The notes under the pieces are model-generated. The model made no database searches. It had not been told where the DNA came from and saw only the letters and a list, made by a program, of their open reading frames with translations. The position numbers and the translations under genes were made by a program. Positions 358 through 7,123 of a stretch of DNA of 11,990 nt are shown here, piece after piece. Source of the DNA: a virus (taxonomy: Duplodnaviria > Heunggongvirae > Uroviricota > Caudoviricetes); IMG/VR virus record IMGVR_UViG_2744054628_000002, positions 1 through 11,990 of that record; one strand, given 5' to 3'. The number at the start of each line of letters is the position of its first letter. Position 1 is the stretch's first letter.

Positions 358-488
358 CGAGATTAAAGTGCATTAGTTCAGATGCAAATTGACATTTTGT
401 GGCACAGGGTAGAGCTAGCGTGGTTGTCCGCTTTGTGCCAATAGCGGACATTGCTGGCTCATGGTATGTTAGTTTAAGGAGGCAGGTT

Positions 489-1511
489 ATGCCCTGTATT
501 TCGCTGTGGTATAATAGTTGCGCAATTGATACAAGGGAGCGTTACATCGTGAAAATTGTTTTCGAGGTTAATGGAAAGAAAGTTCCACTAAAATCTTTAA
601 AATACATAAGCAAAAAAGATCAACTCGAAGTAATGAAAAACTGGTTCTTTGAAAACTTTGAAGATCCGGCAAATGCTTGTCCGTATGAAAGTAGAGAAGG
701 TGGCTATGCTTACATATATGGCGGGCCGTATGATGCGAGCGAAGAACTACAATCCATCTTCGGTCAATATGTTAAATCTGAGTATATTGAGGAATTAGTA
801 GATGAATTACAAACACAATGTTTTGACTGGTCTGGAAACTCAAATAATATAGATGATTGGTACGATGATGATATCTACGACGCTGTAACGTCTTCCGGTA
901 ATCCGTATTTAAAATTCATTGATAATATCGATAAAATAAAAAAACTTGCAAAAGATAAAACTGAACAACAGCAAAAAAACCACTTGCTTAGTTTGCTCTA
1001 CACGAATGTTATTACAGCTTTGGAAACGCTTTATGTTGAGCTATTCATTAATTCTATAGAGAAAGATGATGTCTACATAGCCAATTGTATAGAAAAAGGT
1101 AAGACTGAATTTAAAGTAAGCAAAGATATTGCTGCGTTGCCTTTCAAGGGTGAACCCATCGAGAAAATTAGGGGAGAGCTAATCAGGTCAATCAAGGAAC
1201 ACTTGATCAGTGCAAGCTGGCATAGCACTAAAAAGGTAATCGACCGCTATGAAGCTACATTCGATATAAAAGTACAAAAAGACTGTCCGATAGAAGCTAT
1301 TGAATTGGCAACCCTCAATCGAAATCACTTAGTGCATCGTGGTGGAAAGGATAAAGAAGGGAACCTCGTTGTGATTACAGACCAGGATCTTGAAACGCTG
1401 ATTGAAAATGCATCGAACCTGGCAATTATGCTCTACAACAGTTTAAATGTAGCAACGAATAAAACCACCATTTTGCAACCAGATGACAAACCGTTCATTC
1501 ATGAATTTTAA
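489..1511 (+). CDS. cassette protein A, unknown function; C-terminal helical region carries an R-x4-H motif (RNHLVH) compatible with a HEPN-type RNase fold. Start ambiguous: ATG 489, GTG 549, or the ORF-track GTG 399
   Basis: Long ORF ending TAA 1509-1511. ATG 489 is preceded by AAGGAGG (476-482) with a 6-nt spacer; in-frame GTG 549 is preceded by AAGGGAG (533-539). AT-rich and N/K/I/Y-rich, unlike flanking phage genes. RNHLVH is encoded at 1320-1337. I recognise no family beyond this motif. Confidence 0.7.
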   Translation: MPCISLWYNSCAIDTRERYIVKIVFEVNGKKVPLKSLKYISKKDQLEVMKNWFFENFEDPANACPYESREGGYAYIYGGPYDASEELQSIFGQYVKSEYIEELVDELQTQCFDWSGNSNNIDDWYDDDIYDAVTSSGNPYLKFIDNIDKIKKLAKDKTEQQQKNHLLSLLYTNVITALETLYVELFINSIEKDDVYIANCIEKGKTEFKVSKDIAALPFKGEPIEKIRGELIRSIKEHLISASWHSTKKVIDRYEATFDIKVQKDCPIEAIELATLNRNHLVHRGGKDKEGNLVVITDQDLETLIENASNLAIMLYNSLNVATNKTTILQPDDKPFIHEF

Positions 1512-2970: not shown

Positions 2971-3145
2971 GGCTGCGGGTGCTTGAGGCTATCTGTCTCA
3001 GGCATGAACACCAAAGGCAGATAGAGAAAAGCCCCAGTTAACATTACGCGTCCTGCAAGACGCTTAACATTAATCTGAGGCTCAATCTATGAACGGCAAA
3101 TCTAGGTTAGCCTCTTACGTGCCGAAAGGCAAGGAGAAGCAGGCT

Positions 3146-3301
3146 ATGAAGCAGCAAAAGGCGATGTTAATCGCCCTGATCGTCATCTGTTTAACCGTCA
3201 TAGTGACGGCACTGGTAACGAGGAAAGACCTCTGCGAGGTACGAATCCGAACCGGCCAGACGGAGGTCGCTGTCTTCACAGCTTACGAACCTGAGGAGTA
3301 A
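3146..3301 (+). CDS. hok: Hok-family type I toxin (small membrane host-killing peptide), 51 aa
   Basis: Translation MKQQKAMLIALIVICLTVIVTALVTRKDLCEVRIRTGQTEVAVFTAYEPEE matches the Hok/Gef/RelF(HokD) family as I recall it: single TM helix and conserved C-terminal AVFxAYE. ATG 3146; AAGGAG at 3131-3136. The ORF-track start 3089 is an in-frame upstream ATG. Confidence 0.9.
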   Translation: MKQQKAMLIALIVICLTVIVTALVTRKDLCEVRIRTGQTEVAVFTAYEPEE

Positions 3302-3368: not shown

Positions 3369-3395
3369 AACCCGCTTCGGCGGGTTTTGTTTTTT
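3369..3395 (+). terminator. intrinsic terminator at the 3' end of the hok transcript
   Basis: AACCCGC (3369-3375), TTCG loop, GCGGGTT (3380-3386), then TTGTTTTTT. Lies inside the 5' part of ORF-track ORF 3339..3746, arguing that the downstream gene starts later. Confidence 0.7.
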
Positions 3396-4809: not shown

Positions 4810-5184
4810 ATGCGTATAGAGTTTGTTTTGCCTTACCCGCCGACGGTGAACACCTACTGGCGACGTCGTGGCAGCACATATTTTGTATCAAAAGCCGGTG
4901 AGCGTTATCGCCGTGATGTGGCGCTTATTGTTCGCCAGCAGCGACTGAAATTAAATCTGTCCGGAAGGCTGGCGATCAGGATTATTGTGGAGCCACCGGA
5001 TAAGCGTCGTCGCGACCTGGACAATATCCTGAAAGCACCGCTGGATGCGCTGACGCATGCGGGAGTGTTAATGGACGATGAGCAGTTTGATGAAATCAAT
5101 ATCGTTCGTGGTCAGCCAGTATCTGGTGGACGTCTGGGGGTGAAGATTTACCCCATAATGCATGAAGAGCAGGTCAAAAAATGA
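4810..5184 (+). CDS. rusA: RusA-family Holliday junction resolvase (endodeoxyribonuclease), 124 aa
   Basis: Conserved RusA signatures: N-terminal PPTVNTYW and catalytic-region RRRDLDN. AAGGGG RBS 4797-4802. Stop TGA 5182-5184 overlaps the Q start. Confidence 0.93.
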   Translation: MRIEFVLPYPPTVNTYWRRRGSTYFVSKAGERYRRDVALIVRQQRLKLNLSGRLAIRIIVEPPDKRRRDLDNILKAPLDALTHAGVLMDDEQFDEINIVRGQPVSGGRLGVKIYPIMHEEQVKK

Positions 5185-6002
5185 AACTGGAAGATTTACC
5201 GAAATACTACTCCCCAAAATCCCCTTGCCTGACCGATGCATCGGCCTCAACGTCAAAAGATGCGCTGAGTATCACTGATGTGATGGCCGCGCAGGGCATG
5301 ACACAGAATCGGGCTGAGATGGGGTTTTCTGCGTTCCTGGGGAAAATGGGCATCAGTATGAATGACAGGGCGCGGGCAACAGAATTACTGGCAGATTATG
5401 CACTCAGTCGGTGCGATCGTGTGGCGGCGTTGAGAAAACTTCCGGCAGAAATAAAACCGGTAGTGATGCGCATTATGGCTTCGTACGCTTTTGAGGATTA
5501 TGCCCGCAGCGCAGCGAGTAAAAAGCAGTGCCCTTGTTGCTATGGGGAAAAATTTATTGAAAGCGTAGTTTTTACAAACAAGGTCCAGTATCCGGATGGT
5601 AAGCCGCCGGTATGGGCAAAGTGTACGAAAGGTGTGTATCCGTCTTACTGGGAAGAATGGAAAAAAGTCAGGGAGGTGGTAAAAGTTGCCTGTCCGGAGT
5701 GTGGCGGAAAGGGTGAGGTTTCCACCGCCTGTAAGGATTGCCGTGGGCGTGGTGTCGCCATTCACCGTGAAGAGTCGGTAAAACGTGGTATGCCTGTTAT
5801 CAGAGACTGCCAGCGTTGTGGTGGTCGTGGCTATGAAAGACTACCATCAACGGAGGTATTTAATGCTATATGCGAGGTGACAAACCAGATAACACGCGCG
5901 TCATGGGAAAAAACAGTTAAGAAATTCTATGATGCGCTGGTGACCCGGTTTGATATTGAAGAAGCATGGGCTGAGCGGCAGTTAAAAAAGGTAACTAGGT
6001 AA
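5181..6002 (+). CDS. Q: late-gene antitermination protein Q (lambda Q family) with an expanded Cys-rich zinc-binding region, 273 aa
   Basis: N-terminus (KYYSPKSP...DVMAAQGM) and C-terminus (SWEKTVKKFYDALV...VTR) parallel lambda Q as recalled; central CPECGGKG, CKDCRGRG and CQRCGGRG repeats. A pR'-like promoter follows immediately. Confidence 0.88.
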   Translation: MKLEDLPKYYSPKSPCLTDASASTSKDALSITDVMAAQGMTQNRAEMGFSAFLGKMGISMNDRARATELLADYALSRCDRVAALRKLPAEIKPVVMRIMASYAFEDYARSAASKKQCPCCYGEKFIESVVFTNKVQYPDGKPPVWAKCTKGVYPSYWEEWKKVREVVKVACPECGGKGEVSTACKDCRGRGVAIHREESVKRGMPVIRDCQRCGGRGYERLPSTEVFNAICEVTNQITRASWEKTVKKFYDALVTRFDIEEAWAERQLKKVTR

Positions 6003-6007
6003 CAAGG

Positions 6008-6047
6008 TTGATTTTTCCGGAATCTGTGGTAAATTCGTCATAACGAT
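6008..6047 (+). promoter_or_regulatory. pR'-like late promoter with qut-like initial transcribed region
   Basis: -35 TTGATT (6008-6013), 16-nt spacer, TGg extension (6027-6029), -10 TAAATT (6030-6035); AACGATGGG at 6042-6050 resembles the lambda pR' pause-inducing element (AACGATGGG) as I recall it. Sits directly after Q. Confidence 0.5.
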
Positions 6048-6082
6048 GGGCGTTTTATGCCTGGCGTTAGAAGAGTTTCTAC

Positions 6083-6106
6083 AACCCGCCGCTGAGCGGG
6101 TTTTTT
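6083..6106 (+). terminator. tR'-like intrinsic terminator downstream of the late promoter
   Basis: AACCCGC (6083-6089), 6-nt loop, GCGGGTT (6096-6102) running into TTTTTT (6101-6106), then ATT. Confidence 0.6.
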
Positions 6107-6145
6107 ATTGCGAAATTAATTACGGACCGTTATTATTCTGCTCCC

Positions 6146-6221
6146 GGCCCTTTAGCTCAGTGGTGAGAGCGAGCGACTCATAATCGCCAGGTCGCTGGTT
6201 CAAATCCAGCAAGGGCCACCA
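6146..6221 (+). tRNA. tRNA with CAT anticodon (Met or lysidine-type Ile2), 76 nt, CCA encoded; probably the ileX/ileZ-like tRNA that lambdoid and Stx phages carry after Q
   Basis: Hand-folded cloverleaf: acceptor GGCCCTT/AAGGGCC, D-arm GCTC-AGTGGTGA-GAGC, anticodon loop CTCATAA (CAT at 6179-6181), T-arm GCTGG-TTCAAAT-CCAGC, discriminator A, CCA 6219-6221. Close to E. coli ileX as recalled. Confidence 0.85.
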
Positions 6222-6321
6222 TCACAAACCGCCATTAGCTTATCAGGAAGAGCAGACGACACGATAACAGGGTTGTTGGTGCGGGGGCGGGTCCCCGATG
6301 GCGGTCCATTATCGGTATTCA

Positions 6322-6366
6322 GCGTTGTTAGCTCAGCCGGACAGAGCAATTGCCTTCTAAGCAGCT
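6322..6366 (+). tRNA. tRNA-Arg(TCT)-like 5' portion (acceptor 5' strand, D-arm, anticodon arm); 3' half degenerate, so probably a tRNA pseudogene or fragment
   Basis: GCGTTGT-TA-GCTCAGCCGGACAGAGC-A-ATTGC-CTTCTAA-GCAGC gives a canonical D-arm and a TCT anticodon loop, but I find no T-arm (GGTTGCACTCC in place of GGTTCGAATCC) and no 3' strand complementary to GCGTTGT. Confidence 0.35.
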
Positions 6367-6731
6367 GTGGTTGCACTCCTGTTGTTTCTGGTGGTGATGG
6401 TGGACTTCAGCAGCCGGATAATGTCGGTGCTGTCTGATGGTGTTTTGGTGGCGGGTGTGTGGTTGTTGCTTTCCCGTTGCTGAAAAAGAAAGCATCAGGC
6501 GATTAGCAGGGTATCAGTTACCCGTTGAAATTTTTAAATACCTCACAATTCCACAGCTTGATGATTGTCTGGCTGCCGGAGAATTTGTTAAAAATTACAT
6601 CGCATGGTGAATCCCCCTGTGCGGAGGGGTAATCAGCGAGTAGGTATATGGGATAATCGCGGATTCAGGTGCTGGTACTGAATTCACCGGGAGGCACCCG
6701 GCACCATGCAATGGCACATAGCGCCACTCTC

Positions 6732-6759
6732 CAGCCCCTCTCCGGAGGGGCTGTTTATA
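6732..6759 (+). terminator. GC-rich hairpin followed by T-rich tract; candidate intrinsic terminator
   Basis: 9-bp stem CAGCCCCTC / GAGGGGCTG with TCCG loop (6732-6753), then TTTATATTGATTTTG. U-tract is interrupted, so strength uncertain. Confidence 0.4.
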
Positions 6760-6787
6760 TTGATTTTGTCAGATGTGAGTAAACTCC

Positions 6788-7123
6788 TTATGGACTTTGT
6801 TGTTTTAGTCCATAAGGACATATTTGCAGAATGCAACGGTTATTAAAGCATTCATTCAATACGTTATCTGTATTTGTAGGGCATTCCTGGCTGTTTTTGA
6901 TTAAATTCCAGAATGTTTTATTGAATGGTACTACGTTGTAAATGGTTACAGGTAGCACTTTGTTATTGAGCATGATGCCTGTGTGAGTCAGTGTAAATAT
7001 ACTTTCAGGAGGTAAGAAAGCATCCGATTGATACCAGATTATTAATTTTATTTTACTCCATATGACTGAAAAAGATATTCCGCATGATGGCTGGATAACT
7101 GTATCAATCACAATCCACTTCAT
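6788..7123 (-). CDS. hypothetical Cys-containing protein in AT-rich moron, 111 aa, no recognisable family
   Basis: ATG at 7123 (- strand) preceded by AGGA with ~6-nt spacer; stop at 6788-6790. Opposite strand to all flanking phage genes, AT-rich, and sits in the Q-to-S cargo slot. No signal peptide evident. Confidence 0.6.

Follow-up and report, generated by a model that had tools for sequence, protein, structure and literature searches.

A predicted two-domain HEPN ribonuclease in a cargo slot of a lambdoid prophage of Escherichia coli

Introduction

The locus studied here raises the question of whether a short R-x4-H motif (RNHLVH), found near the C-terminus of a prophage protein annotated as hypothetical in E. 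coli, belongs to a HEPN ribonuclease active site and, if so, what such an enzyme could do for the prophage that carries it. The whole stretch of DNA that we analyzed, hereafter the window, comprises 11,990 nucleotides and corresponds to an E. coli prophage of the lambdoid, Rac/Qin-like type, inserted beside ompW. The gene of interest (protein A) and the gene following it (protein B) form a cassette which stands out as a low-GC insert (35–39%, against about 50–56% in most of the flanking prophage sequence). The coordinates of the features discussed below are collected in Table 1.

Tha is a solo HEPN defence protein carried by a lambdoid prophage. HepS, another solo HEPN protein, is encoded by the Salmonella prophage Gifsy-1, where its gene occupies an accessory slot flanked by the genes for replication and those for late regulation (Sargen et al., 2026; PMC13043305). 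It is constitutively expressed and inactive until a phage tail-tip protein binds, after which it cuts tRNA anticodon loops (PMC13043305); the Rx4H motif is essential in this anticodon nuclease (PMC13043305). In a census of HEPN domains, the members of the "Ribo L-PSP-HEPN" family were predicted to be active RNases, with a distant relationship to AbiD/AbiF (Anantharaman et al., 2013; PMC3710099). HEPN/RES-NTD1, a domain of ~100 residues whose type example is KPK_1764 of Klebsiella pneumoniae 342, was defined in the same work by its fusion to HEPN or RES effectors (PMC3710099). More recently, stand-alone RES proteins that also carry this domain (PF18870) were defined as aRES; aRES protects E. 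coli with growth arrest and its RES NADase makes ADPR-1''-phosphate (Osterman et al., 2026; bioRxiv 10.64898/2026.01.28.702374).

Results and Discussion

The motif is invariant among relatives of protein A

The motif was recovered where the original prediction had placed it, near the C-terminus of protein A: positions 1320–1337 (CGAAATCACTTAGTGCAT) translate as R-N-H-L-V-H in the frame of the ORF 399–1511 (+ strand). Residue numbers are counted here from the ATG at position 489, which has the sequence AAGGAGG 7 nt upstream; the motif then corresponds to R278–H283. An alternative GTG start (549–551), giving a protein of 320 aa and the numbering R258–H263, is used by PGAP in E. coli ATCC 11775 and coincides with the position where most homologs begin. 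The first 20 residues of the longer form were not conserved and had pLDDT values below 50.

The prediction had also cautioned that so short a motif may occur by chance. This was justified for the bare pattern, as at least one Rx4H was present in 12.9% of 20,000 shuffles of protein A, at least one Rx4-6H in 34% and at least one R[NHDQ]xxxH in 2.6%, but the caution fell away once conservation was counted. Both R278 and H283 were invariant in 246 full-length relatives obtained from two database searches, with identities down to about 26%; R284 was kept in 244 of them, and position 279 was H or N in all. R278, H283, and R284 were likewise all invariant in an alignment of 33 sequences (to 26% identity), and the pattern R[HN]xxxHR was retained at each of the 77 species-level genomic loci, out of 80, with an alignment over the site. 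It is thus conservation across relatives, and not the bare pattern, that sets RNHLVH above chance.

Protein A contains a second Rx4H (RSIKEH). The residue corresponding to R233 was mostly K, E, D, or Q in the comparison of the 246 relatives, and RSIKEH was ruled out as an alternative active site and considered a chance occurrence.

Table 1. Features of the window discussed in the text (residue numbers of protein A counted from ATG 489).
Feature	Position	Strand	Basis or remark
Protein A CDS, HEPN/RES-NTD1 followed by HEPN	489..1511	+	ORF list and translation; 340 aa from ATG 489
HEPN/RES-NTD1 core, aa 46–112	624..824	+	PF18870 match; 33/33 relatives
C-terminal all-helical domain, assigned to HEPN, aa ~139–328	903..1472	+
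E179, conserved acidic residue in long helix 160–190	1023..1025	+	E in 244/246 relatives; AlphaFold2 helix
Second Rx4H, RSIKEH, aa 233–238	1185..1202	+	Pattern scan
W244-H245 dipeptide, insert between second and third core helices	1218..1223	+	W in 233/246 and H in 243/246 relatives
Predicted catalytic motif R278-N-H-L-V-H283 and invariant R284	1320..1340	+	Sequence; conservation in 246 relatives and 77/77 loci
Protein B, 333 aa	1527..2528	+	15 nt downstream of A
hok/sok type I toxin-antitoxin module	2977–3151, 3089–3301	+	Rfam sok 110 bits; directly downstream of the cassette
Strong terminator-like hairpin	3369–3386
Q-like antiterminator gene	5181–6002
Prophage-borne tRNA-Met (CAT)	6146–6221	+	Just downstream of the Q-like antiterminator gene
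STnc100 sRNA family match, full-length	6572–6762	+	132 bits; after tRNA-Met
111-aa ORF in a very low-GC region (about 32%)	6788–7123	−	Between the antiterminator and lysis regions

The C-terminal domain is assigned to HEPN through homologs

Neither PF18735 (RiboL-PSP-HEPN) nor any other HEPN model matched protein A at E ≤ 10, whether the full protein or its isolated C-terminal 204 aa was used, and no PF18735 match at this threshold was obtained for its closest relatives either. The HEPN assignment was thus made through homologs. PF18735 was matched at E ≤ 0.01 by 15 of the 33 aligned relatives, and two full-length homologs of protein A, P0103 (phmmer E-value of 3e-38 to protein A) and P0060 (59% identical to it), obtained 39.1 and 28.5 bits, respectively, for a gathering score of 28.4, with matches spanning nearly the whole profile. 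Full-length homologs of protein A thus pass or approach the threshold of the model and, as in the RiboL-PSP-HEPN family, their domain is all-helical, spans about 190 residues, and bears the R-[HN]-x-x-x-H signature. Protein A and its closest relatives from enterobacteria and Aeromonas differ from the family in being too diverged to match the model; moreover, protein A exhibits neither the fusion to endoRNase L-PSP nor the ParB operon, its N-terminal partner being HEPN/RES-NTD1.

The C-terminal ~200 residues had been described by eye as rich in helices, in agreement with the AlphaFold2 model that we built on the alignment (mean pLDDT 84.5), in which residues 139–328 are almost entirely helical. 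The position given for HEPN motifs in general, in the last helix, has to be revised: in protein A the motif closes the helix 268–283 of the model and is followed by a loop or short excursion, then by the final helix 298–328. The end of the penultimate helix is the position described for the HEPN motif (PMC3710099). Several short helices fill the space between the helix bearing E179 and that of the motif. In many HEPN families helix 2 carries a conserved acidic residue near the active site (PMC3710099), of which E179 is, by analogy, a candidate equivalent. Similarly, the alternative histidine borne on an insert in some families (PMC3710099) makes H245 a possible auxiliary active-site histidine.

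The prediction had proposed to look for R and H side by side in the model. Crystallography of resting HepS places the two residues about 17 Å apart (PMC13043305), so that their juxtaposition in a model of the monomer would be an unfair test. Comparison of the model with the PDB by Foldseek gave only non-significant matches to nuclear receptors and helical bundles (E ≥ 0.4, TM about 0.1), and no relative was found by a profile search of PDB sequences. The best hit of the latter, ribosomal protein eL20 (E 0.078), was rejected as spurious. No significant match was found in PADLOC-DB v2.0.0, which includes PD-T4-2/5, PD-T7-3, ApeA, and AbiD/F; the best E-values (0.01–0.026) corresponded to short stretches of unrelated models. 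PHROGs and NCBIfam assigned no function to protein A.

Taken together, the transitive homology to PF18735, the placement of the motif, with E179 as candidate acidic residue in a preceding helix, and the occurrence of the NTD1 domain in all 33 relatives support the HEPN reading, and sequence comparison and modelling indicate that protein A ends in a true HEPN domain whose catalytic signature is intact. That the motif would be a chance Rx4H in an unrelated helical protein agrees with its frequency in shuffled sequences (13%), with the existence of the second, unconserved Rx4H and with the lack of a HEPN match in Foldseek; it is contradicted by the PF18735 matches of the relatives and by the conservation in 77 of 77 loci and 246 of 246 relatives, and we consider it extremely improbable.

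Non-catalytic HEPN domains typically lose the Rx4-6H motif. In the 246 relatives of protein A, the R and the H were always present and E179, H245, and R284 were each conserved in at least 98%, which is the pattern expected of an active site under selection. Although some HEPN families are non-catalytic (PMC3710099), it is therefore very unlikely that this domain has the HEPN fold without nuclease activity and acts as a ligand- or RNA-binding or scaffolding module.

The N-terminal domain probably belongs to HEPN/RES-NTD1

The N-terminal part of protein A matched PF18870 with an E-value of 2.5e-4 and 21.8 bits, under the gathering score of 27.4, whereas the partial homologs P0115–P0117 passed this threshold; all 33 aligned relatives matched at E ≤ 0.01. 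The position and length of the domain in protein A also fit its original description (PMC3710099). The most conserved stretch of the protein lies here and not in the HEPN domain: it reads WFxxNFEDPAxxCPYESREGGYxYIYGGPYDA (residues 52–83), and W52, F53, P60, P65, G78, G79, and P80 were conserved in at least 98% of the 246 relatives. Within this conserved core, residues 61–80 were modelled as a loop of low confidence (pLDDT about 61–63).

One of the partial homologs (P0116) has HEPN/RES-NTD1 behind a PIN_8 nuclease domain. The NTD1 core is thus common to protein A, aRES, and this PIN_8 protein.

The census of 2013 already listed HEPN/RES-NTD1 fused to HEPN and to RES, so that the architecture of protein A was known in Enterobacteria from computational cataloguing (Anantharaman et al., 2013; PMC3710099). 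The fused HEPN (MAE_28990/MAE_18760 families) was assigned there to the MAE_28990 superfamily, whereas our Pfam scans placed the relatives of protein A in RiboL-PSP-HEPN; these general scans gave no match to MAE_28990. Pfam models exist for both domains, and neither this class of effector nor its carriage as prophage cargo is unfamiliar. What is new is limited to a diverged subclade from enterobacteria and Aeromonas, missed by the HEPN models and annotated as hypothetical, and to its coupling here with a GNAT-fold protein. The literature that we searched yielded no experimental characterization of protein A or of its family, and no experimentally tested member of the RiboL-PSP-HEPN family was apparent in it; the two domain families (PF18735 and PF18870) were covered there only by the 2013 census, a table in a review, and the aRES preprint.

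Relatives of protein A occur on mobile elements and in islands of defence genes

Among 1.84 billion cluster representatives (50% identity), a profile search retrieved 3591 relatives at E ≤ 1e-3, including 816 at E ≤ 1e-30. The best 150 of the 3591 were nearly all 270–340 aa long and were matched end to end. Relatives were found in Proteobacteria, Acidobacteriota, Desulfobacterota, Chloroflexota, Cyanobacteria, Bacteroidota, and others; some are named "HEPN-associated N-terminal domain-containing protein" or "HEPN domain-containing protein" in RefSeq, while the E. coli protein is annotated as hypothetical.

We then considered the genomic contexts at the 80 species-level loci. No neighbour family was present within 3 kb of the A gene at more than 3 of them. 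The gene was found at prophage edges, in ICEs and a conjugative element and on plasmids, beside ParE/HTH, AbiH, Fic, SIR2, and restriction genes. With no conserved neighbour and with these contexts, the family is one of solo genes that reside on mobile elements and in defence islands. Most of its members reside in chromosomal islands and at the edges of elements with defence genes, and not inside conserved phage modules; only two distant matches were detected in 50,697 sequenced phage genomes.

A HEPN RNase with this distribution might instead serve the mobile element itself, either as an addiction or stabilization toxin or as an RNase of the prophage's own lytic cycle, involved for example in host shut-off or RNA processing. 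In the window, the replication genes precede the A gene on the early-right strand and the nin/Q genes follow it, so that A could be expressed by read-through after induction; a promoter consensus scan found no site just upstream of A and no enrichment over shuffles. Members of the family on plasmids and ICEs occur beside toxin-antitoxin genes, and hok/sok immediately follows the cassette. Classical addiction is nevertheless unlikely given the lack of a conserved antitoxin-like partner, the prevalence of islands and element edges with defence genes fits this role poorly, and the two distant matches in phage genomes argue against a core phage function. We thus consider a role in the service of the element to be quite unlikely.

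Protein B is probably a lineage-specific companion

The HepT toxins of HEPN/MNT (HepT/MntA) type II/VII toxin-antitoxin systems are single-domain proteins of ~130 aa. Each comes with an antitoxin partner, an MNT nucleotidyltransferase, which AMPylates HepT. Protein A differs from HepT in having an additional N-terminal domain and no MNT neighbour. Its gene is flanked by a DUF977 gene and by that of protein B, which places it outside the HEPN/MNT systems. Protein B combines an unassigned N-terminal domain with a C-terminal GNAT acetyltransferase fold that is confidently predicted.

A and B were each present in 209 of 5426 complete E. coli genomes (~4%), the sampled matches being adjacent, and the E. 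coli copies of both were at least 99% identical in all but one record. An identical pair (WP_014639476.1 and WP_000354966.1) was found between relB and IS26, with qnrS1 a few kb away, on an IncF plasmid that is conjugative and carries resistance (positions 5001–6980 of locus L104, from NZ_CP069974.1), indicating that both prophages and plasmids exchange the cassette. On a mobilizable element of Aeromonas, a pair with 87% and 79% identity and the same 15-nt gap was also present.

A 3.3-kb contig labelled as a Collinsella sp. MAG (locus L024; JAIHTM010000277.1) encodes A and B 100% identical to those of the E. coli window; it is most likely a mis-binned enterobacterial contig. Homologs of B were twice observed near Abi_2 genes, which encode HEPN proteins of the AbiD/F type.

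These observations raise the possibility that A and B form one two-gene system, in which the GNAT-fold protein would restrain the RNase by covalent modification or act as a co-effector or sensor. The same-strand arrangement of the two genes, their equal frequency and adjacency in E. coli, the identical plasmid pair, the more diverged Aeromonas pair with its unchanged gap, the GNAT fold of B and the proximity of its homologs to Abi_2 genes would all be expected from such a system. At the level of the family the picture is different: B was present at only 2 of the 80 species-level A loci and absent beside relatives of A with 63–76% identity, and homologs of B were found without A in ICEs and defence islands. 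This distribution, together with the lack of any family-wide conserved neighbour of A, is that of independent cargo genes which travel together, and B was rejected as a conserved antitoxin or partner of the whole A family. The pairing thus looks recent and lineage-specific. We treat B as a lineage-specific travelling companion of A, and a functional link between the two as a minority alternative that we judge unlikely. A HEPN-GNAT pairing, if true, would be without described precedent. Since A is always found with B in the E. coli/Aeromonas lineage, it may not act alone there.

Proposed mechanism and comparison with known systems

By analogy with aRES and HepS, the role that we find most likely for protein A is that of a single-protein abortive-infection RNase. 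We favour, as probable though with clear reservations, the view that this two-domain protein works alone as a HEPN ribonuclease, forming part of the cargo of a lambdoid prophage and staying silent until a phage cue leads it to abort the infection. The C-terminal domain would adopt the four-helix bundle of a HEPN domain of the RiboL-PSP-HEPN type, with R278 and H283, aided by E179 and perhaps by H245 and R284, forming the active site of a metal-independent RNase. This site would probably become competent only through the pairing of two HEPN domains, as is the case for other HEPN enzymes. HEPN/RES-NTD1 may keep the enzyme silent in the lysogen and couple its activation to a cue from the infecting phage, possibly by gating the HEPN dimer, so that the R278/H283 sites would cut RNA only after the cue. 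The activated enzyme would then cleave cellular or phage RNA (tRNA or mRNA), leading to growth arrest and to an aborted infection, which would protect the population of lysogens and hence the prophage.

The best functional analogue of protein A is HepS, as both are solo HEPN proteins without a partner gene, in equivalent slots of lambdoid prophages. The HepS family is defined by homology to STM14_3211 and by stand-alone proteins of less than 250 aa without additional domains, and protein A falls outside this definition. aRES resembles protein A in being a two-domain, stand-alone protein without an operon partner, found in defence islands and carrying PF18870; its effector is a RES NADase in place of the predicted HEPN RNase, so that only the NTD1 parts are related (bioRxiv 10.64898/2026.01.28.702374). 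No RES domain was matched in protein A or in any of the 33 relatives, which sets them apart from aRES.

A broader conjecture, which we hold only tentatively and regard as rather unlikely, would be that NTD1 serves as a transferable module for phage sensing or auto-inhibition, associated with a RES NADase in aRES, with a HEPN RNase in protein A and with PIN_8 in the partial homolog mentioned above. Protein A would then represent an uncharacterized family of single-protein RNase defence systems, and the E. coli/Aeromonas lineage may have enlisted B to work with it, for instance as an acetyltransferase gating or complementing the RNase.

If protein A is an active RNase gated by a trigger, it would add a tractable single-gene abortive-infection system to E. 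coli and provide the first functional handle on HEPN proteins of the RiboL-PSP type; with protein A and aRES both available, what the conserved HEPN/RES-NTD1 senses could be tested directly. An explanation would also be at hand for two proteins annotated as "hypothetical protein" in about 4% of complete E. coli genomes. None of this would be a conceptual surprise, since both solo HEPN defence by prophages (HepS, Tha) and NTD1-effector proteins (aRES) are established.

The cassette occupies a variable slot of the prophage

In the window, the A-B cassette follows the DUF977 gene, with which the replication region ends, and precedes the hok/sok, DUF968, RusA, and Q genes. Related prophages of E. 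coli have other cargo in this slot (window 358–488; loci L106–L108): QueH alone, QueH with a hypothetical protein and a KwaB-like Kiwa protein, or hypothetical genes in the reverse orientation. This variation among related prophages indicates a cargo hotspot downstream of the DUF977 gene. The DUF977 flank matched 4041 of the 5426 genomes and the cassette only 209. Carriers of A include prophages of E. coli UTI89 and of the type strain ATCC 11775, as well as IncF resistance plasmids. In E. coli ATCC 11775, the counterpart of the ORF of the hok/sok module is annotated as hokD. A prophage-borne tRNA and an sRNA family match follow the antiterminator gene (Table 1), and the 111-aa ORF encoded beyond them on the opposite strand may be another cargo (moron) gene.
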